NCBI GenBank assembly: GCA_965603725.1
Contig: CBFDEC010000007.1
Location: 44,273 to 108,272 of the forward strand
Reading direction: 5' to 3'
Length of the DNA: 64,000 bases
Source of the DNA: an uncultured bacterium
GTDB lineage: Bacteria > Zixibacteria > MSB-5A5 > UBA10806 > 4484-95
Part shown: piece by piece, positions 11,410 through 56,724 of the stretch
Layout of the letters: each line of letters starts with the position of its first letter
Position numbering within the stretch: the first letter of the stretch is position 1
Position numbers and translations under genes: made by a program
Notes under the pieces: generated by a model
Database searches by the model: none
Told to the model about the DNA's origin: nothing
What the model saw: the letters and a program-made list of their open reading frames with translations, nothing else

Positions 11410-13045
11410 ATTAATCGTTTTTAATTCGGTCGATGAGATGCCGGAGATGGCGGTTGCCGGATCGCCAATGGACTGGAATAAAACCGGTTCCTGGCGATCG
11501 TCCACTCCTGTTCACAGGGACAAGACCCCGCCATGCAATTTCAACTGCCCTGCCGGTGAGGATATACGCGGTTACATAGATTTAATAAAGAAAAATCAGC
11601 TTAGCGATGCTTTCAGCCTTCTAACCAAGACTAATCCGCTTCCGGCTGTGTGCGGGCGGGTATGTTTTCATCCCTGCCAGGCTAACTGTAATCGTCATGA
11701 TTTCGATATCGAAGTACAGGTGCGATTGCTTGAAAAATTCATAGGCGATTGGGGAATCGAAAACAAATTAAAAACAGAACTTCCTGATTTAAGTCACCAT
11801 AAGATAGCGGTCATCGGAGCAGGTCCGGCAGGATTGGCCGCCGCGTATTTCCTTCGCAGGAAAGGCCTGGCAGTAACACTCTATGATGAAAACGGTTTGC
11901 CGGGCGGTATTCTGCATTACGGCATACCATCATACCGGCTCGATAAAGATATCCTGCAAACTGAGCTTGAAAGACTAATGGAAGGAATCGAGTTTAAATC
12001 GAACATGAAATTCGGTTCCGATTTTGGTATCGGTGATTTACAAAATTTCGACTCGGTCTTCCTGGCAACCGGCGCACATCTGTCAAAAAAAATGAATATT
12101 AATGGAGAGAAACTCACCGGAGTAGAACCCGGACTTGATTTTTTAAAAAATGTGAACTCCGGCGTTGCTGTTGACCTCAAAGGGAAAAAAGCTGTTGTTA
12201 TTGGCGGCGGCAACACGGCCTGTGATGTTGCCCGCACCGCTTATCGTCTCGGCGCCGATGTTCACCTTGTTTACCGGCGGACCCAAAAAGAAATGCCTGC
12301 TTTCGCCGAAGAGGTTGAACAGCTTAAATCCGAACCAATTAAAATAGAGTTTCTGGCGGAACCCGAGAGAATTGAAAGGCAAAACGATGGCAGGTTGAAA
12401 GTATTATTCACAAAAATGAAACTTGGAGAACCCGACCAATCCGGCCGTTCAAGACCTGTTCCAATCAAGGGTTCGGGTTTCGATATGATCGTGGATAAAA
12501 TCTATGCCGCAATCGGTGAGGACCCCGACCTGTCATTCTTTCCGAAGGTGGTTATTTCAAACAGCGGCGAATTTGATTTTGCCGGAGTAGAAAAAAGTCT
12601 GCGCGAAAAGCTGTTCGTCGGCGGAGATATTTTGCCTAATCCCAGGACAGTTCCTCACGCGGTTGCCACAGGAAGGTTGACCGCTGATAAAATTGAGGCG
12701 TTTCTAAAGGGAGAACTGCTAGATTCTCAAAAGAATATCGCCGAGGTTGCTGGTCCTGATGACGTTAATTATATCTATTTCACAAAGGTCAATGCAGCAA
12801 AATGGCAGAAAAATCTAACCATCAACGGCAGTATTCCCGATATAGAAAAGGCGATTGAGGAAGCCAGCCGCTGTTTTTCCTGCGGTGTGTGCAATCAATG
12901 TGACAACTGCTACAATTTCTGCCCCGACCTGGCCGTGATTAAATCCTCGGATGGGTATCAGATCAATCTCGACTACTGTAAGGGGTGCGGTATATGCTCC
13001 AATGAATGTCCTCGCGGCGCTTTGATTATGGAGGCGAAGAGTTGA
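11402..13045 (+). CDS. GltD-family NAD(P)H-binding FAD/FeS oxidoreductase with a C-terminal 2x[4Fe-4S] ferredoxin domain (OFOR-associated)
   Basis: CNFNCPAGEDIRGYI..CGRVCFHPCQANC, IAVIGAGPAGLAAAYFL, VVIGGGNTACDVARTA, and C-terminal CFSCGVCNQCDNC..CKGCGICSNECP. Track start is TTG; an ATG at 11438 or 11447 is possible. Confidence 0.7.
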   Translation: MSKLIVFNSVDEMPEMAVAGSPMDWNKTGSWRSSTPVHRDKTPPCNFNCPAGEDIRGYIDLIKKNQLSDAFSLLTKTNPLPAVCGRVCFHPCQANCNRHDFDIEVQVRLLEKFIGDWGIENKLKTELPDLSHHKIAVIGAGPAGLAAAYFLRRKGLAVTLYDENGLPGGILHYGIPSYRLDKDILQTELERLMEGIEFKSNMKFGSDFGIGDLQNFDSVFLATGAHLSKKMNINGEKLTGVEPGLDFLKNVNSGVAVDLKGKKAVVIGGGNTACDVARTAYRLGADVHLVYRRTQKEMPAFAEEVEQLKSEPIKIEFLAEPERIERQNDGRLKVLFTKMKLGEPDQSGRSRPVPIKGSGFDMIVDKIYAAIGEDPDLSFFPKVVISNSGEFDFAGVEKSLREKLFVGGDILPNPRTVPHAVATGRLTADKIEAFLKGELLDSQKNIAEVAGPDDVNYIYFTKVNAAKWQKNLTINGSIPDIEKAIEEASRCFSCGVCNQCDNCYNFCPDLAVIKSSDGYQINLDYCKGCGICSNECPRGALIMEAKS

Positions 13046-13053
13046 AGAAGGTG

Positions 13054-14202
13054 ATGTCGGGTAATGAGGCGGCCTCTCTGGCGGTAAAGCTTTCCAGGGT
13101 TCAGGTGATATCGGCTTATCCCATAACCCCGCAGACGGTGATTGCCGAGAAACTATCTGAACTCTGCGGTTCGGAGGAACTTGATGCCAGGTTCGTTAAG
13201 GTGGAATCGGAACATTCAGCCATGGCGACTTTGATCGGGGCGGCCTCCACCGGCGTTCGCACTTTTACTGCTACCTCGGCTCAGGGACTTGCGTTGATGC
13301 ATGAGCTGCTGTTCTGGGCATCAGGCGCTAGATTGCCTGTTGTCATGGTTAATGTTAACCGGGCCATGGCGGCTCCCTGGACTATCTGGTGTGACCAGAC
13401 CGATTCTGTCGCCCAGCGCGATACCGGTTGGATGCAGTTTTATTGCTGGTCCAACCAGGAAATATTAGACAGCGTCATCTGCTCATTTAAGATAGCCGAA
13501 AAACTGTTGATTCCCTGCATGGTCTGTTTCGACGGTTTCTTTATATCGCATACCTATGAAGCCGTGGATATCCCCGATCAGAAGGATGTAGATAAATTCC
13601 TGCCATCAAGAAAAGCAGAAACTTACATTGATACGAAAAACCCGCAAACGTTTTCGGGCGGTACTTTGCCGAATAATTTCATGGAGTTCCGCTATAAACT
13701 TCAAAAAGCATTCGAACAGGCGCCTGAAGTGATAGATAAAACCTACGGCGAGTTTAACAATATATTCGGCCGCTCATACAAAGATATCGAACCGTATTTT
13801 TTTAATGATGCCGAAACCGTGTTAATGGCTTCCGGCTCTGCGGCATCAACGGTATATTATACGGCGAGAAAATTACGGGAGTCGGGAAAGAAAGTTGGCT
13901 TCCTGAGATTAAGGCAATTGCGGCCGTTTCCCGAGAAATCGTTTTTATCGTTTATGAAGCCGGATGTTAAATACGGTGTACTGGACCGTAATCTTTCACC
14001 GGGCACAGGCGGAGTGTTCACCCAGGAGATAAGAGGAGTTTTAAACCGTCACGGCCGGCAGAATCGGGTCAGCGAATTTGTCGCCGGTCTCGGTGGACGA
14101 GATATAACCGAACAACATATCATGGAGATATTTAATAAGCTTGCGAATGGCGAAATTAATACATCGGGAATAAACTGGATCGGTGTGAAGGGAAAACAAT
14201 AA
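13054..14202 (+). CDS. 2-oxoacid:ferredoxin oxidoreductase alpha subunit (set 1)
   Basis: PorA/KorA-like protein (MSGNEAASLAVK.., AYPITPQT). ATG at 13054 follows AGAAGG; the track ORF begins upstream at 13006 inside the previous gene. Confidence 0.75.
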   Translation: MSGNEAASLAVKLSRVQVISAYPITPQTVIAEKLSELCGSEELDARFVKVESEHSAMATLIGAASTGVRTFTATSAQGLALMHELLFWASGARLPVVMVNVNRAMAAPWTIWCDQTDSVAQRDTGWMQFYCWSNQEILDSVICSFKIAEKLLIPCMVCFDGFFISHTYEAVDIPDQKDVDKFLPSRKAETYIDTKNPQTFSGGTLPNNFMEFRYKLQKAFEQAPEVIDKTYGEFNNIFGRSYKDIEPYFFNDAETVLMASGSAASTVYYTARKLRESGKKVGFLRLRQLRPFPEKSFLSFMKPDVKYGVLDRNLSPGTGGVFTQEIRGVLNRHGRQNRVSEFVAGLGGRDITEQHIMEIFNKLANGEINTSGINWIGVKGKQ

Positions 14203-23701: not shown

Positions 23702-24265
23702 TTGATAATACGTTTTGCCGGTTTTGGCGGACAGGGGATAGTGCTGTCAAGCTATATCATGGGGCAGTCGGCTGTTTTTGATGGCAAGAAAGCTTTGCAG
23801 AACCAGTCGTACGGCAGTGAATCACGCGGCGGCGAGTGCCGCGGCGATGTGGTCATTTCCGATGAGGCAATCTTCGATCTAGAACCGACCTGTTATGATG
23901 TTTTAGTAGCCATGACCCAGCCCGCTTATGATAAATTCATCGCTCTTTTAAGACCCTGCGGCACGCTTATATTAGATAAAGATCTCGTGGTAACCGACAA
24001 CAGCCTTGAACCTGAAGGCATAAAAAAATATGGTATCAGCGCAACTGACATTGCATTTAAGAAATTTGGACGAAAGATCGTGGCTAATATGGTGCTGCTT
24101 GGTTTTATGAATACGCTGCTAAACATGGTATCGGATAAAGCGCTGGAGGATGCCATCTCAAAAAACGTTCCCGACGGAACTCAACAGATGAACCTCGATG
24201 CCATGCATGAAGGTATCGAGATTGCTAAGCAGGAGATGAAAGGAAAGAAAAGGCTGAAACGATGA
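23702..24265 (+). CDS. 2-oxoacid:ferredoxin oxidoreductase gamma subunit, paralogue 1 (TTG start)
   Basis: [15 protein letters not shown]...[10 protein letters not shown], a PorG family protein. Confidence 0.7.
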
Positions 24266-24660
24266 GGACCGAGATTAATCCGTCAGGTCACCCCTGCGGG
24301 TACGACCTGACTAAACAAGAATTTAGAGATTTGAGATCACAAATTGTGACCTCAAACAGGGGTGGCCGCCGTTATCTTCCATATGCTTTCACTGAACAAG
24401 GCGTTGCCATGCTTTCCAGTATTTTACGAAGTCACCAAGCTGTTCAAGTTAACATCGAAATAATAAGAACTTTTGTCAAGCTTCGCCAATTATTATCAAA
24501 ACATAAAGATTTAGAAAAGCGGCTTGACAATTTAGAGAAAAAATATGATAAGCAGTTTAGAGTTGTTTTTGATGCTATTCGTCAATTGATGGCCCCTCCG
24601 CAATCGAAGCGACGGCTAATTGGATTTAAAAAAGATCAAAAGAATGAAGACCGAGATTAA
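24262..24660 (+). CDS. N-terminally truncated ORF6N-domain (KilA-N-like DNA-binding, prophage-associated) protein fragment fused to a duplicated porG start codon
   Basis: [16 protein letters not shown] and [37 protein letters not shown] match the conserved core of ORF6N-domain proteins (from memory). Its first 14 nt (atgaggaccgagat) repeat the start of the downstream porG2 (atgaggaccgaaat). Confidence 0.5.
24283..24311. repeat. hairpin repeat copy 2 (gtcaggtc-acccctgcgggta-gacctgac) inside the 5' end of the ORF6N fragment
   Basis: Read directly. Same caggtc/gacctg stem core as copies 1 and 3. Confidence 0.5.
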
Positions 24661-27872: not shown

Positions 27873-28703
27873 ATGGCAAAAGATTTAAAAATGACCGGAG
27901 AGCGAATTGTTCCGGACGACATTCGAACGCCAATCGAATATATACAATTATTGCGTCACCTTTTCGTTTATGAGCATGTTAAAAGTATAATAAATACTGA
28001 TGAAAAAGTCCTTGAAGCAGGTTTCGGAGAGGGTTATGGCGCTAAAATGCTATCGGAGACATGTAAAGAGATCGTCGGAATAGATGTCGAAAAAAAAGTT
28101 GTTGAATATGCTGCTAACAAATACGGCACTAATAAATGTTCATTCAGGCTTTATGACGGCAATATTATTCCCTTTGATGATGAAACCTTTGATGTAGTAA
28201 TTTCGTTCCAGGTAATTGAACATATACATGATGACGCTGGCTTTATCAGCCAACTTCACCGGGTACTTAAAAAAGGCGGCAAGCTTTATTTATCCACACC
28301 AAATAAGGCAACCAGACTCAGACCCGGCCAAAAACCCTGGAATAGGTTTCATGTCAGGGAGTATTATGCTCATGAGCTTAAAGCTCTTATTGAAAACACT
28401 TTTAGTAACGTTGAAGTTTTTGGAATCAGCGCTACCGAGGAGATTCATCGGATCGAGGCGCACAGGATTAGGCAGGGATTTTTCTTGTCATTAGCGCTCA
28501 GACTGGGATTACGCAAGCTTATTCCCGAGTTCATTGATCCTCTGATAGCAAGGCTTGTAAGCGTCAAGAAAAGCAAGCAGGTGAAATCGATTGATAATCA
28601 AGAGCCAAAAGATCGATTCAACATTAGTGATTTTCGAGTGGAAACAATCACGGTCGATGAAAGTCTTGATCTGCTTGCTCAGGCAATTAAAAGTAAACTC
28701 TGA
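27873..28703 (+). CDS. class I SAM-dependent methyltransferase
   Basis: Motif I LEAGFGEGYG and post-I DVVISFQVIEHI, Methyltransf_11-like. Confidence 0.75.
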   Translation: MAKDLKMTGERIVPDDIRTPIEYIQLLRHLFVYEHVKSIINTDEKVLEAGFGEGYGAKMLSETCKEIVGIDVEKKVVEYAANKYGTNKCSFRLYDGNIIPFDDETFDVVISFQVIEHIHDDAGFISQLHRVLKKGGKLYLSTPNKATRLRPGQKPWNRFHVREYYAHELKALIENTFSNVEVFGISATEEIHRIEAHRIRQGFFLSLALRLGLRKLIPEFIDPLIARLVSVKKSKQVKSIDNQEPKDRFNISDFRVETITVDESLDLLAQAIKSKL

Positions 28704-31232: not shown

Positions 31233-31355
31233 TGGAATCCTGAGAAAGTACAGAGTTCCTCCCTGAATCATAATAGTCATGCATTGCTTGTTTTCAGGAA
31301 ATTCACCAGCGGCGGATCGGTGATTGAGTCACAAACCCGTGAAGTCATTTTTGGT

Positions 31356-31375
31356 GTGACCAAATCGTGACCAAA
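31356..31375. repeat. direct repeat GTGACCAAA x2 (11-bp spacing)
   Basis: Read directly in a convergent intergenic region. Confidence 0.4.
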
Positions 31376-31489
31376 ACCGTTGCACGTTATTCGTGGTTAT
31401 TGGGGGATATACAGTTACAAACGTAGCAATGGGGTTATTAAATCCCCGTCCCATTTGTAAGGCGTTGTAGTGTAATGACTTATCTTGGT

Positions 31490-31507
31490 GAAGGCGGGGG
31501 GAATCTA
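31490..31507. repeat. left copy of an 18-bp imperfect direct repeat (gaaggcggggggaatcta), att-like
   Basis: 16 of 18 bases identical to ggaggcggggggaatcga at 34679-34696, which lies in the tRNA 3'-end-like fragment. Confidence 0.45.
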
Positions 31508-31630
31508 CATGCGCTGTTTTCGTAACCCCTAGAGACACCTTCAATTACAGCACAACCTCTTGATTCCCAAAGGATTCCATTTTTTATTTGGTTTTATTCG
31601 TTTGTGTTTGTTTTTATCTGTTTTGACCTC

Positions 31631-31652
31631 AATCTGGCACAAATCTGGCACA
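31631..31652. repeat. perfect tandem duplication of the 11-mer aatctggcaca
   Basis: Read directly. It lies about 55 bp downstream of the helicase-nuclease stop, inside the islet. Confidence 0.5.
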
Positions 31653-31708
31653 AAATATAGATGCGTTTATTGCCTTTTTACTTTTACATTTTAGAAATTC
31701 AATTATTG

Positions 31709-34228
31709 CTACTTCACATACTTTACTTTTCTTGAATATTTTTTGAGTAGGTCAGAAACCGAGAGTTTATATGTATCAACTAACTTTTGAATGTGAGGGA
31801 TTGATAAATCCTTTAAATTAATCGATTCAAATGCCTTAAAGAATTCTCTAATACATTTAATAAACTTCTTCAACTCATCTTCTGTCATAACCTCTACTTC
31901 ACAAGTAAATGCTGCCGGTTTCGAAACTTTATAAGTTGGATGAATCATCACTCGCTTAACTTGCATATTTTCATAGTTTTTTTCAAACCAAGCACTTGAA
32001 CTATTCATTTGTTCCGTTTCTCGTTTATTAATTTCTGACCTTCGTATCTCCACTTCATTTTTACATTCCCATAATAAATATTGTGCATCTTCCAATGCCC
32101 ATAAATTATCCGGGCCTTCTTTCCACACCTTATCAGGTCTTTCACCCGCAAAACCAAGTGCTCTGCTGAGTTCATCCAATGCTTGCTCAAATTTGTCAGC
32201 TTTAGCACCAAAAACCAAAGAACCTAAAATATCTGTAAGTGCTATATCCAGATGAGCATAGTCTTCGAAATTTCTAATCCATTCAGCAATTCTCTCCATT
32301 CTTTTTTGGCTAATAACACTCAATTTTACTACTGTTACACCGAAAGGTGGCTTCAACAGAAATCGGTTTTTTTTGTGAGCCGAAACCTGAAGCTTCTGTG
32401 ATTCCGCTCGATTAGCCCGATAGTTATATCTTGCCATCTCTTGTAAATACCAACCTTTTTCGGCATCATCGTGCTTAGCTGTGTCAAGGAATGCTTGTAT
32501 TTGGTTTGTTGCACCTGAATAATCCCCGCTTTGGTACGATTGTTCAGCGTTTAATTCAACGGTATAAATATTTAAAATATTTTTGTTTGCACCAGAAGGC
32601 TTGACACTGGCCATTTGTTGAGCATAGAAAGCTTTCCAGTCTCCATTACGATTCAAACATTGTTTAAGTAATGCAATAAATATTTTAAATGGTTTTTCAC
32701 CGTCATCTAAATCCAGTTTTGCCATTTCTGCGATTTCAACACCAATTCCAATTTGAGTCGACATCTGAGGTGAAAGGAATTTTCGAGATTGCCTGTCACG
32801 TACAAGCCTTGTAATATCTGGTCCCGTAATAATAATAACAGAATAATCTTTTTCACCACGAACACTTCTACCCAAACCTTGTTCAACAGTTCTTATCGTT
32901 CGCATTAGTATTGCTTCATTATCGGGTCGGCAAAATTCCTCATAAAGGTCGGTAAGGTTTTCAGAATAAGGTTTGCTATCGAAAATCAGAATTCGACAAG
33001 TATCATCTGGAAGATCAATGCCGTCATAACGATTTGCTAAAACTATTGTATGTTCGTTTTTTCCTTCTCGTAGATTTTGAATAATATTAGTAAGAGTATC
33101 TGTTGTAGCTACCACGGCTCCATAAGCTTCCCAATCTTTCGTACGTAGAAAACTTGGAGTAAATGCGACAACACCAAATTGCTTCTTTGATGTAAATGAG
33201 CCAAAGTACTTTACAATCTCCTCTCTATTTAAATCTTCGTGAATAAGTGAGGGCAATAGAACCATTTTTTCACCAGACCAACTTTCTTTTGAGTAAGTAA
33301 GTGGATTAACTATAGTATCTGGTAAGAGTTGCAGTCCTTTTACTAAGAATGAATCATCGGTAACTGTTGCTGACATAAATATTCTATGTTCTGCTTCCCA
33401 ATAACTACCAAAAGCATATAGTGGTGGAATATAGGGTTCGATTTCGATAGCAGCTCCAGAAATTACACATTTGCAATGACTTAGTAGATCTTTCAAGAGC
33501 GGCCACGCAAATTTAATCGATTGCTGATCTTTGGCTGCAGATAAGATCTTCGCAATTTCGGTTTCTCGATCGAACCAAGCCCAATAAGGAACAGGAAGAA
33601 AGGAATCCCTTTTATTGTTTTGGATATCTGAAAAAGTTCCTACACCTTGTTGTTCCAATTCATTTTCAAAGAGTGACCTCAACTTATGATATGTTTCTTC
33701 TTCTTTGTGAATGCGAATTCTGCATGCTTCACGAATTGAATCCGAGCAAGCGTGCGCATCATCCATTAAAAGTGAGTTAATACTAATGGACTTTGTATAC
33801 AGTCCAAATTTTGTTAATCCATTAAAAAGTTTTTGAATGGACGTTACCAAGATTTTATTACTATCTATAAAATCGTCTGGTAATTCAGGTTCTGCTTTGC
33901 ATGTAGATATTCCAAATTGCTTTGCCTGTTCACAAGTTCGATCAATTAGAAAATTATTTGGGCACAAATATACGGCAGGTCCTTTTGAATCATTCAATCG
34001 TGATTGAAGCATCAATAGACCAATCAGGGTTTTACCTTGACCAGTATGTAATTTTACAATAATATCACGATTATTTTGATGATAAAAATACCATTCTTTT
34101 AGTACAGATTCCTGGGCAGGTCGAAGAGGTCCTTTGTCGTGGGCACGATCCAGATCATCATAGAGAATTAAGGGATCAATTGGCTTCTTTACGTTCTTTC
34201 CTACCATTCGCTTCTTAAAGTCGACCAT
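31709..34228 (-). CDS. standalone SF2 (DEAH-like) helicase fused to a C-terminal PD-(D/E)xK nuclease domain (Type III restriction Res-like / Hna-like helicase-nuclease)
   Basis: Helicase motif I LHTGQGKT, Ia [42 protein letters not shown]-terminal [23 protein letters not shown] is a PD..(D/E)xK signature. AT-rich codon usage unlike its neighbours. No mod methyltransferase is adjacent. Confidence 0.7.
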
Positions 34229-34403
34229 TTTATCCTCTCCCTATGTTCTAATTTAAAACAATTTAGCACTTTTTAAAAATAATATCATGTATATTATGGT
34301 CATATTTTGGAGATCATGCGTCTTTTGTTTTCTGAATAAGCTCATTACTGATATCGCCTAACATCATTACCTGTTTATATAATTATGCAGCATTATATCT
34401 ATT

Positions 34404-34580
34404 CTAAAGCGGAATATCAATTTTTTTTGTTTTCCTGCCGTTATTAGTTTTCGATTCAAGCCATTTGATAACATCTTTTTCTTTAAAACGAACAAACCTG
34501 CCCAACTTCATATGCGGAATATACCCGATATGAGTCCACTGGTAAATAGTAGATACCTTCACGCCAAGGTATTCCGCCAT
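34404..34580 (-). CDS. excisionase/AlpA-family helix-turn-helix DNA-binding protein (58 aa). It falls below the ORF-track cutoff.
   Basis: Translation MAEYLGVKVSTIYQWTHIGYIPHMKLGRFVRFKEKDVIKWLESKTNNGRKTKKIDIPL, which resembles an HTH_17/excisionase-like fold. It is upstream of, and co-directional with, the helicase-nuclease gene. Confidence 0.45.
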   Translation of the reverse strand: MAEYLGVKVSTIYQWTHIGYIPHMKLGRFVRFKEKDVIKWLESKTNNGRKTKKIDIPL

Positions 34581-34678
34581 TTCTTGTGATGGAAGGAGTT
34601 ATAAGAAATTTGCTGGAGGTTATTTCAACGAACCTATAATTATTGCAACCTGTTGTATTTTATTGACTTATAATATAA

Positions 34679-34725
34679 TGGAGGCGGGGGGAATCGAACC
34701 CCATTATCCGCATTAAATACCAACG
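34679..34725 (-). other. tRNA 3'-end fragment (T-arm plus acceptor 3' strand), likely an att remnant of an integrative element. No matching 5' half was found.
   Basis: The minus strand reads ...gcggataatggggttcgattccccccgcctcca, a T-loop TTCGATT with a G/C stem and acceptor 3' strand cgcctcc. No complementary ggaggcg 5' acceptor strand occurs within 120 nt. Confidence 0.4.
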
Positions 34726-34782
34726 ACTTACAGCATCGTGTGGCTAAATTGTGGCAGATTTAATATTTGCCTATTCTCAACA

Positions 34783-34812
34783 AAAAAGGTAGTCGCCGAC
34801 TGCCTTTTTTTA
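34783..34812. terminator. bidirectional intrinsic terminator (A-run, ggtagtcgccgactgcc hairpin, T-run) serving the S33 hydrolase gene
   Basis: aaaaaagg-stem-loop-cctttttttat, read directly. Confidence 0.45.
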
Positions 34813-34877
34813 TCCAGAAAACACCGTAGATATACCGGCGTTTATTATCGTATTGTTGGCGCCAGAAGATACTCTAT

Positions 34878-35852
34878 TTATTTACTCTCTACCTGTGCCA
34901 GGAAATCACGTATGATCTTGATATCAGTCTCAGGATCGTCATGCATCGTAAAATGGGCGCAGTTCTTCAATAGTGCAAACTCTGCGCCGGGGATCAGGCT
35001 CTGGTAATACTTGACGGTCGCAGGTGTGGCTTCGTCGAATTGGCCCGCTGTGAGTAGAGTCGGTATTGTGATCTCGCCGAGGCGATCGGTACGATCGTAA
35101 TCGCTGAGTGTCCCTGTAGAAGTGAACTCACTTGGCCCCCACATGTATCCATACATAGCCAGATTCATCTGCGCGAAAGCGCTGTTTACATCATCTGACC
35201 AGGGCTGCCTGCGCGCTAAATATTGCCCGTAGTAGACCATTACGGCAGATTGATATTCGGGTGAATCTGTTGTTTTTTCCCGTTCGTGATGCCTGATTAC
35301 CTCCTGCACGGAATCCGGCAGAGCACCCAGCAGGCTGTCGGCATCATGAATCCAGCGGGGAACACTAAGAGCGGGACTCGCCAGGACAAGACTACTTACA
35401 CCGGCGGGCCGATTGAGCATATAGTCAACGGCCAACATTGTACCCCAGGAGTGTCCGTAAAGGTGAATTTCTTTCAAGCCTAATGCCTCACGTACTTGAG
35501 TTATTTCCTCCACGAAACGTTCGATCGTCCATAATGTCGTGTCTGATGGACCCGGGGAGCTGGCGCACCCGAGTTGGTCGTAGAAAATCACTGGACGGTC
35601 AGCGGCGAGGGCTTCCAGCGGTTTCAGATAGACACTCGATGAGCCCGGACCGCCATGTAATACCAATAGCGGCGTACGTTCCCCGCTACCGACAATTTTA
35701 TACCACACTTTACCGCCGGTGACCTCAACAAAGCCTTCACCCTGTAGCAGACCGGCGGACTGGCAGGCGCTTAGAGCCAAAACTGCAAGGACGCAAAGTC
35801 CAGCCGTCAAAATCGTTTTTCTGATCATGAATTTCCTCCCGTGAATGTACAT
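34878..35852 (-). CDS. alpha/beta hydrolase, prolyl aminopeptidase (S33) family lipoprotein
   Basis: Lipoprotein signal MIRKTILTAGLCVLAVLALSAC. LLVLHGGPGSSS and GHSWG nucleophile elbow. Confidence 0.75.
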   Translation of the reverse strand: MYIHGRKFMIRKTILTAGLCVLAVLALSACQSAGLLQGEGFVEVTGGKVWYKIVGSGERTPLLVLHGGPGSSSVYLKPLEALAADRPVIFYDQLGCASSPGPSDTTLWTIERFVEEITQVREALGLKEIHLYGHSWGTMLAVDYMLNRPAGVSSLVLASPALSVPRWIHDADSLLGALPDSVQEVIRHHEREKTTDSPEYQSAVMVYYGQYLARRQPWSDDVNSAFAQMNLAMYGYMWGPSEFTSTGTLSDYDRTDRLGEITIPTLLTAGQFDEATPATVKYYQSLIPGAEFALLKNCAHFTMHDDPETDIKIIRDFLAQVESK

Positions 35853-55971: not shown

Positions 55972-56724
55972 TTGGGTATAAGAAAAATCTTATTGAAATA
56001 TTATTGGTGGATCCAGGGATTTATGATACCTGGATTAAAACACTCACAATCCATATATAACAACATTCTAAAAAACTATGTCAAACACGATATATATTGG
56101 TTGGATTTAGGTTGCGGACATCGAATATTACCTTTCTGGCTTTACGAAGAAGAAAAAAATTTAGTTAATATAAGCCAGCTTGTTGTAGGTATCGATTATA
56201 ATCTAAGTTCTTTAAAAAACCATAAAAGTATTTACATAAAGATAAGAGGTGACATTACTAAATTACCATTTAAGAAAAAATATTTTGATTTAGTAACGGC
56301 GAATATGGTTGTTGAACATTTAAATGAACCTGATATTCAGTTTAAAGAAATTTCAAGAATTTTGAAGCCTAAAGGTATATTCATTTTGCATACACCTAAT
56401 ATTTTTAATTTGTGGATTATTATTGCCAGGTTGGTGCCAGATAAAATTAAATTAGTATTTATTAAACTATTGGAGGGAAGAGAAGAAAAAGATATTTTTG
56501 ATGTACATTATAAAGTAAATTCAAGAAAAAAAATATTAAATGTGGCTTCAAAATCAGGATTTCAAGTACTTAAGCTTAAAATGATAGTATCCACTCCCGT
56601 ATTATCTATAATTCCGCCTCTCGTGATATTTGAACTAATATGGATAAGGATTTTAATGATGACACCATTTAAGTTGTTTAGATCAAATATCATAGCAATA
56701 TTGATAAATAATGATTCTTTTTGA
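55972..56724 (+). CDS. class I SAM-dependent methyltransferase
   Basis: LDLGCGHRIL (motif I) and LVTANMVVEHLNEP. AT-rich. Confidence 0.6.
   Translation: MGIRKILLKYYWWIQGFMIPGLKHSQSIYNNILKNYVKHDIYWLDLGCGHRILPFWLYEEEKNLVNISQLVVGIDYNLSSLKNHKSIYIKIRGDITKLPFKKKYFDLVTANMVVEHLNEPDIQFKEISRILKPKGIFILHTPNIFNLWIIIARLVPDKIKLVFIKLLEGREEKDIFDVHYKVNSRKKILNVASKSGFQVLKLKMIVSTPVLSIIPPLVIFELIWIRILMMTPFKLFRSNIIAILINNDSF

Follow-up and report, generated by a model that had tools for sequence, protein, structure and literature searches.

A 64,000-nucleotide (nt) stretch of DNA from an uncultured bacterium of the Zixibacteria (contig CBFDEC010000007.1, positions 44,273 to 108,272; called the window below) carries an AT-rich islet of 3.2 kb whose only genes are two open reading frames (ORFs). 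The larger one encodes a protein of 839 amino acids (aa), and sequence comparison makes it clear that this is a full-length ortholog of Hna, an already characterised single-protein anti-phage abortive-infection system. The smaller one encodes a helix-turn-helix (HTH) protein. The islet itself would belong, as one unit, to a tandem array left behind by integrative elements recombining at the 3' end of the transfer-messenger RNA (tmRNA) gene, ssrA. We regard this combined explanation as very probably correct, with still greater confidence in the identity of the gene and less in the history of the islet, which we infer from homologous sequences on related contigs (designated by L numbers).

Identity and proposed activity of Hna

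The gene under study occupies the following position:

31709..34228, minus strand: hna, encoding an 839-aa superfamily 2 (SF2; DinG/XPD-like) ATPase fused to a C-terminal PD-(D/E)xK nuclease (Pfam, PADLOC, PDB, BLASTP and alignment)

The initial annotation, made from the letters of the DNA, had proposed a single-protein helicase-nuclease of the Hna type and a search with profile models, and the proposed type was borne out when Pfam, NCBIfam and PADLOC were searched. Residues 1-835 of the protein match positions 1-827 of the 831 in PADLOC model PDC-S28 (E = 0, 1035.6 bits), and PDC-S28 proteins correspond to Hna in DefenseFinder according to a study that compared defence annotations across the Bacillus cereus group (PMC11811056, supplement). 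A phmmer search of the PDB gave a single strong match, 10uj_A (E = 0, 1202 bits, query residues 1-839 against chain residues 1-845), and the matches also include 9yhn and 9ykj (845 aa). Entries 10UJ and 9YKJ are monomer and dimer structures of Sinorhizobium meliloti Hna solved by cryo-electron microscopy (PMC13381803). In BLASTP the window protein shares 518 of 845 positions (61%) with S. meliloti Hna over the full length, with one 6-residue gap. The solved structure of this 61%-identical ortholog makes a fold prediction for the window protein dispensable.

All SF2 motifs and the PD-x13-ExK nuclease signature were found where they had been annotated, namely TGQGKT at residue 62, DDAH at 156, SAT at 286 and QGLGRSVRG at 450, and P706-D707 followed after 13 residues by E721-C-K723. 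Pfam assigns the N-terminal part to ResIII (2.3e-13)/DEAD and the second lobe to Helicase_C_2, the DinG/XPD type. GQGKT forms residues 63-67, and the ATP-coordinating R36 and Q39 are also present. These two residues, D31 and P34, and the nuclease residues P712, D713, E727 and K729 were tested by mutagenesis in S. meliloti Hna (PMC13381803). The first four are identical and identically numbered in the window protein, and the nuclease residues align with P706, D707, E721 and K723, so that each residue whose mutation changed ATPase or nuclease activity is conserved. These eight positions and the SF2 motifs are invariant across an alignment of 13 homologs from several phyla. The family has more than 4000 matches, and proteins of 839 aa with 65-81% identity occur in Burkholderia, Acidobacteria, Methylocaldum and Gallionella; such uniformity across phyla fits frequent horizontal transfer.

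The neighbours of four Hna homologs that we compared are entirely different, and no partner gene is conserved. The homolog in L084 lies beside a tRNA-Ser gene between housekeeping genes, the one in L085 belongs to an element with a relaxase, a coupling protein and a NACHT gene, and those in L087-L090 lie on a conjugative element beside Type I restriction-modification (R-M) and AbiE genes. The HTH gene was not found next to hna in L084 and L087. No DNA methyltransferase partner adjoins the window gene, in agreement with the initial annotation; the islet contains no methyltransferase gene at all, and no Mod gene was seen elsewhere in the window or next to the homologs examined. The nearest methyltransferase gene (27873-28703) encodes a small-molecule enzyme of the Methyltransf_11/25 type and is separated from the islet by sigma and anti-sigma genes. 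By analogy, the window hna is expected to act alone, with no partner needed.

The L084 gene (9813-12600) is the closest non-identical homolog (81% aa identity) and stands bare, with neither the HTH gene nor the terminal module described below. It starts about 100 nt past an intact tRNA-Ser(cga), ends about 75 nt ahead of a peptidase S41 gene, and is flanked by a perfect 11-nt inverted repeat (CATTCCGACAG / CTGTCGGAATG, at about 9942 and 12543).

The AT-rich codon usage noted earlier was also confirmed. The GC content of hna is 36.3% and its GC at third codon positions (GC3) is 26.2%, compared with 50% and 54% for the flanking anti-sigma gene, 52% and 54.5% for the flanking hydrolase gene, and a mean GC of 41.7% for the window. 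GC3 in the neighbouring genes ranges from 37 to 60%, and hna is compositionally foreign to its surroundings.

Two other identities were weighed for this gene. An orphan Res subunit of a Type III R-M system that has lost its Mod partner, which the initial annotation had left open, would account for the ResIII assignment of the N terminus and for the order of helicase and PD-(D/E)xK domains, which resembles that of Res. However, the second helicase lobe is Helicase_C_2 and not Helicase_C, no Type III Res model in NCBIfam or PADLOC matches, the full-length match is to Hna, and Mod genes are lacking as described above; this reading is effectively refuted and keeps next to no probability. A housekeeping repair helicase-nuclease like DinG or ExoDinG is scarcely more credible. 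It is suggested by weak matches to TIGR01407 (8e-6) and typeIV_DinG (1.4e-16) and by the structural resemblance of Hna to ExoDinG (PMC13381803), but the scores fall far under the family cut-offs (24 versus 548 bits). The foreign composition, the position in an islet bounded by attachment (att) sites, the placement of close homologs on conjugative elements and next to R-M and Abi genes, and an identity of 65-80% between phyla, as horizontal spread would produce, speak against such a role as well.

No catalytic residue has been lost from the window protein, and its mechanism can be read with good confidence from the published work on the ortholog. S. meliloti Hna is a Mg/Mn-dependent 3'-5' exonuclease of single-stranded DNA (ssDNA) with a PD-(D/E)xK fold, whose activity is abolished by K729A, and it does not unwind DNA (PMC13381803). 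ATP binding locks it as an auto-inhibited homodimer, and there is competition between its ATPase and nuclease sites. A phage single-stranded-DNA-binding protein breaks the dimer and frees the nuclease, which leads to abortive infection (PMC13381803). By analogy, the N-terminal SF2 (DinG/XPD-like) domains of the window Hna would bind ATP in the uninfected cell and keep the protein as an auto-inhibited homodimer, which a phage single-stranded-DNA-binding protein would disrupt. The freed PD-(D/E)xK domain, with P706, D707, E721 and K723, would then act as a 3'-5' exonuclease on DNA whose single-stranded 3' ends are free, and this degradation would halt phage replication at the cost of the infected cell. 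The activity and the trigger proposed here are those of the S. meliloti ortholog, while the sequence identity, the motifs, and the repeats and their homologs described below are direct observations.

Direct repeats and the terminal module

The islet is bounded by two direct repeats, which lie within or next to these features:

31490..31507, minus strand: left repeat (core), GATTCCCCCCGCCTTCA followed by CCA, with one substitution relative to the family core GATTCCCCCCGCCTCCA
34680..34703, minus strand: right repeat, assigned to the 3' end of tmRNA (T-arm and 3' strand of the acceptor, GGGGTTCGATTCCCCCCGCCTCCA), without the tmRNA body
31476..31666, minus strand: conserved terminal module of about 190 nt, with arm repeats TTGTGCCAGATTTGTGCCAGA (31630-31654), an A-rich spacer, GTTGTGCTGTAAT and then the core (nhmmer)
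31355..31489, minus strand: conserved stretch beyond the left repeat (TAAGTCA..., with GGTCACGATTTGGTCAC at 31356-31372), with matches in L114 and L109
34581..34679, minus strand: leader inside the right repeat, a P'-like arm (TAAGTCA..TACAAC..GGTTCGTTGAAATAACCTCCA), which aligns with the sequence after the same junction type in L109
34704..34760, minus strand: arm upstream of the right repeat, an 11-nt tandem TCTGCCACAAT/TTAGCCACACG followed by GCTGTAAGTCGTTGG; second junction type

The 18-mer GGAGGCGGGGGGAATCGA lies at 34680-34697 and a second copy with 2 mismatches at 31490-31507, as first annotated (16/18). These are the only two matches with up to 3 mismatches in the 64-kb window, where 0.04 are expected by chance, and 0 of 100 shuffles gave two. 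The similarity between the repeat regions extends past the 18 nt to an alignment of 44 nt with 77% identity. The direct repeats are not the product of chance, to which we allow a negligible probability at most. The left copy matches the family core at 16/17 positions and is the core of the conserved module (E = 2.9e-51), and the right copy is tmRNA-derived.

The right repeat had originally been attributed to a tRNA. A fragment comprising the T-arm and the 3' strand of the acceptor is present, but by comparison it is the tRNA-like 3' end of tmRNA (ssrA), not of a tRNA. This assignment is made because the 3' end of the L101 tmRNA, GGGGTTCGATTCCCCCCGCCTCCA followed by TTA, is identical to window 34703-34677 over 27 nt, because the acceptor strand ...CUCCA bears the U70/A73 signature of alanine-accepting RNAs, and because Rfam gives a weak tmRNA match for the right repeat at model positions 348-362. 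The tRNA search that had been suggested gave no support for a complete gene, as ARAGORN and Rfam found neither a complete tRNA nor a complete tmRNA in the 64-kb window. Two tRNA genes were rejected as sources of the fragment: the tRNA-Lys(ttt) downstream of the hydrolase gene in L004 has the opposite orientation and a different sequence, and the tRNA-Ser next to hna in L084 does not match. Rfam matches at E>1 in the islet (long non-coding RNA, small nucleolar RNA, Salmonella small RNAs) were dismissed as chance.

A scan of metagenome contigs with the arm repeat TTGTGCCANATTTGTGCCANNTTGA returned 31 loci, about 15 of which carry the module (some 20 copies in 15 contigs); the pattern had no match among viral contigs. 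In related contigs the module consists of a tandem arm repeat, an A-rich spacer, GTTGCGCCGTAAT and TTTCGATTCCCCCC(A/G)CCTCCA with or without a further CCA, after which unrelated sequence follows. An nhmmer profile built from 16 module copies of other contigs, with the window excluded, recovered 31476-31666 (E = 2.9e-51) and the right junction at 34667-34736 (E = 1.9e-5). In L101 and L114 an intact tmRNA, detected by ARAGORN, is followed in the same sense by an islet of 1.3-2.2 kb and then by the module and core. In L113 the tandem arm repeat TTGTGCCA stands directly upstream of a tyrosine integrase gene.

By this comparison the left repeat represents the core in an end of the attR type, in which the element arm is followed by the target 3' end. 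The right junction is one between tandem units and not an attL beside an intact target, because its flanks align with junctions in L109 and L106 and no tmRNA body adjoins it. Specifically, the arm at 34704..34760 aligns with L109 at 5517 and with L106 at 7273 (GTCACAATtTGGTCACA...TGTAAxTCCTTG...T-arm), and the first 25 nt or so of the leader resemble the flank after the left repeat. The initial picture of an integrase-less islet flanked by att sites was therefore correct for the left end and for the origin of the right repeat, but not for its reading as an attL. The extent first given, 31490-34696, was too short, because the stretch at 31355-31489 is conserved after the core in L114 (78% over 152 nt, E = 8e-29) and in L109 (7507-7655), so that element sequence runs past the left edge to about 31355. 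Either a further unit starts here, or the stretch is native sequence that flanks tmRNA on its downstream side.

Similar arrangements recur on other contigs. L085 has the same order as the window, with an Hna that is 74% identical as a protein and with nucleotide identities of 82% for the HTH gene, 76% for hna and 75% for the module; the shared module stretch lies downstream of hna, measures about 170 nt and takes in the left repeat. The L085 element also carries a relaxase and a coupling protein, and three modules stand in tandem, closing one unit that ends in coupling protein, HTH, hna and a 148-aa ORF, a second with a 75-aa ORF, NACHT and a 215-aa ORF, and a third with an alcohol dehydrogenase. 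Two or three cores each are present in L101, L103, L106, L107 and L109.

Several further observations concern these arrays. In L101 a third core lies past the module core, at about 2700-2830 in module orientation (original coordinates about 650-920), with some 100 nt ahead of it that repeat the 3' portion of the tmRNA body; the antisense ORFs of the two tmRNA-body copies share the peptide RRYLRITIYACRRIFDLD. This duplication suggests recombination by a different family of elements at a site further upstream in ssrA. Large proteins recur as cargo of the tmRNA-site units in L114 (3177-4568) and, with coordinates in module orientation, in L106 (7451-8878) and L109 (9473-10867), and one (12595-13875) is a neighbour of hna in L084; they are peptidases S41 in L114 (Pfam) and L084 (contig annotation), and candidates for such in L106 and L109. 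On the plus strand of the window, TGCCAGGTTGGTGCCAGA at 56424-56441 is similar to the tandem arm repeat TTGTGCCA (89% over 19 nt, E = 0.17), probably by chance.

History of the islet and its surroundings

Upstream of hna on the same strand lie two further features:

34404..34580, minus strand: ORF of 58 aa of the HTH_17/excisionase family, with the original start lost (Pfam HTH_17 3.6e-14; NCBIfam TIGR01764 3.7e-13)
34392..34420, minus strand: promoter-like site TTGATA-17-TATAAT, with 11/12 consensus positions, some 165 nt ahead of the start codon of hna

The promoter-like site is the best-scoring one of the region as a consensus match alone. The 58-aa ORF, which had been annotated as an HTH of the AlpA/excisionase family, was confirmed as such by both family models. 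Its homologs begin MNKL(Y/L)TP(E/N)EM, while the window codons read F-L-stop-LLPSQE-M; with the original start gone, the internal Met is the one place left for the ORF to begin. The homolog in L085 (71% aa identity) lies upstream of hna, and the one in L095 (79%) lies upstream of unrelated cargo, where the HTH gene and the module surround a GIY-YIG nuclease gene and one for a 394-aa uncharacterised protein. Because the same HTH gene and module carry different cargo in L095, the HTH is, from this comparison, a backbone gene of the element and not a partner of Hna.

The islet would thus have the layout HTH, hna, terminal module of about 190 nt and core. As one unit of a tandem array formed by integrative elements at the 3' end of ssrA, it would end on the left in a conserved attR-type arm with its core, and on the right in the tmRNA 3' fragment that forms the junction with a neighbouring unit. 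At about 34600 the homology changes over from the L109-type leader to the HTH gene. Because of this switch the islet resembles the product of a deletion or recombination in an L085-like element. With no integrase and without the HTH start, it would be a stripped-down descendant of a larger mobilisable element such as that of L085. It is probably now immobile, or movable only by an integrase acting in trans.

Several points weigh against this account. Neither the 64-kb window nor the roughly 1-2 kb past its right end yielded an integrase. The same region contains no intact tmRNA, which was seen only in the related contigs L101 and L114, and the link to ssrA draws on homologous junctions in other contigs. 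About 11 units in related contigs show no integrase among the ORFs scanned or annotated (a check that was not exhaustive), which is odd for decayed autonomous elements. No empty site was found, and the islet is present, with 99.5-100% identity, in each of the three assemblies covering the site. PADLOC recognised no defence function in the cargo of other units. As to Hna itself, the dimer-interface residue T30 of S. meliloti is H30 in the window protein, and H is near-invariant among the close homologs aligned, so that regulation may differ in detail from that of S. meliloti Hna.

The searches behind these points covered both genes and assemblies. A tblastn search with the L113 integrase found no homolog, either in the window or among the retrieved loci, and Pfam assigned ten ORFs between 36 and 55 kb to ordinary metabolic and envelope functions, with no recombinase among them. 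Past the right end of the window there are a glycosyltransferase cluster and an IS-type (insertion sequence) DDE transposase (L129 102-1271), and there is no tmRNA. In the comparison with close relatives that had been suggested, islet-bearing assemblies were found, but none lacking the islet. The hydrolase protein, searched against one genome per species, has relatives of up to 84% identity with no shared neighbours; the anti-sigma protein returned nothing from metagenome contigs; and exact-protein look-ups with the sigma factor, the hydrolase, a TonB-dependent receptor and an AMP-binding enzyme gave only contigs that bear the islet or are too short. An identical protein also occurs in the metagenome-assembled genome GCA_964541095.1. 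The idea that other units also carry known defence systems was not supported by PADLOC.

The lack of integrase genes can also be read differently. The islet might be a functional cassette without an integrase of its own, whose module and core ends are recombined by a tyrosine integrase encoded elsewhere, so that hna is shuffled in and out of ssrA arrays; it would then be akin to the cis-mobilisable elements of streptococcal integrative and conjugative elements, taken up below, and more loosely to integron cassettes. About 11 units of 0.8-4.7 kb (in the window, L085, L101, L103, L106, L107, L109 and L114) are each bounded by cores and share the terminal module, none of them shows an integrase, and both arms are 75-85% conserved while the cargo differs completely. 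In L113 the arm repeat adjoins an integrase gene, and several assemblies break at the junctions around the hydrolase gene, which suggests variation in the population. On the other hand, the left core of the window is substituted (CTTCA versus CTCCA), the HTH gene has lost its start, neither a circular or excised form nor an empty site was seen, and the window holds no candidate integrase; decay of the integrase after serial integration remains a sufficient explanation. We consider such a cassette rather unlikely, and it is compatible with the identification of the gene as Hna. A wider version of the idea, to which we give somewhat less credence still, places the islet in an undescribed array system by the tmRNA gene of uncultured bacteria, made up of small integrase-less units ending in module and core. 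A single trans-acting tyrosine integrase would capture, excise and reshuffle them, like the attC cassettes of integrons, with cargo ranging from defence (Hna, NACHT) to peptidases and regulators. Between these readings, we retain that of a decayed unit of a tandem array at the tmRNA site.

The surroundings of the islet show some features of their own. The islet coincides with a compositional boundary, with a GC content of 44-48% to its left (1-30 kb) and 30-41% to its right. The right side (36000-64000) holds a cluster of glycosyltransferase and surface-polysaccharide genes, with the GC minimum of 29.6% at 56-58 kb. The adjacent hydrolase gene (34878-35828, minus strand) encodes an alpha/beta-hydrolase and has a GC content of 52% in a setting of about 40%. 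Four independent assemblies contain contigs of 1.1-1.6 kb that cover little beyond this gene (34649-35851). Three of them begin at 35841-35851 and all four end at 34649-34826, near the right junction, while the fourth, L125, extends about 0.5 kb further upstream to 36391. The closest relative of the hydrolase, in L004 (84% aa identity), is flanked by two tRNA-Lys genes, and the hydrolase gene may itself be a separately mobile or variable unit. At 24262-24660 on the plus strand there is a gene for a 132-aa ORF6N-domain protein (KilA-N-type, phage-associated), whose Pfam annotation was taken from the identical contig L002; it is flanked on both sides by sets of genes for 2-oxoacid:ferredoxin oxidoreductase subunits.

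Relation to known systems

Hna entered the literature in 2023, followed by its structure and mechanism in 2026, and standard defence-finder models cover it. The gene described here is a known system in a typical mobile context, to which the window adds an ortholog from an uncultured lineage. The family occurs in about 2% of bacterial genomes (PMC13381803). The same backbone of HTH, hna and module appears stripped to 3.2 kb in the window, in an element with relaxase and coupling protein in L085, and with other cargo in L095, so that the islet offers a worked example of how a single-gene defence system travels. The moderately new part is the family of tiny integrase-less units closed by a conserved module ending in a tmRNA core, and these recurrent units are the only part that might repay further work.

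Compared with S. meliloti Hna, the window protein is of nearly equal length (839 versus 845 aa), has the same HEL1-HEL2-NUC order, is 61% identical from end to end, conserves the SF2 motifs and PD-x13-ExK, and likewise has no partner. It differs in a 6-residue deletion after residue 50, in H30 for T30, in belonging to another, uncultured host and in its location in an islet at the tmRNA site. With the Res subunits of Type III systems it shares the N-terminal ResIII-type ATPase and the PD-(D/E)xK nuclease, but its second RecA domain is DinG/XPD-like and a Mod partner is lacking. Moreover, Type III Res is an endonuclease coupled to translocation, in contrast to characterised Hna, an ATP-restrained 3'-5' ssDNA exonuclease.

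Tyrosine integrases insert genomic islands at ssrA, in some cases as tandem arrays in which the 3' fragment of ssrA is repeated. Such islands are a classic theme, and those at tmRNA genes are reportedly covered in surveys by K. P. Williams. The window islet resembles them in the derivation of its repeat from the tmRNA 3' end, the arm with tandem 11-nt repeats beside the core, the HTH of the excisionase family, the tandem units and the foreign cargo. It differs from them in the small size of the units (0.8-4.7 kb), in the absence of an integrase from this and the related units examined (a check that was not exhaustive) and in the absence of an intact tmRNA from the window. Another parallel is provided by cis-mobilisable elements (CIMEs), which derive from integrative and conjugative elements of Streptococcus thermophilus and are att-flanked islets without integrase or conjugation genes, in tandem with related units. 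The window islet is similarly att-flanked, has no integrase or conjugation genes, stands in tandem with related units and would likewise come from a larger mobilisable element, as the comparison with L085 suggests. It differs from CIMEs in phylum, in target gene and in integrase family.

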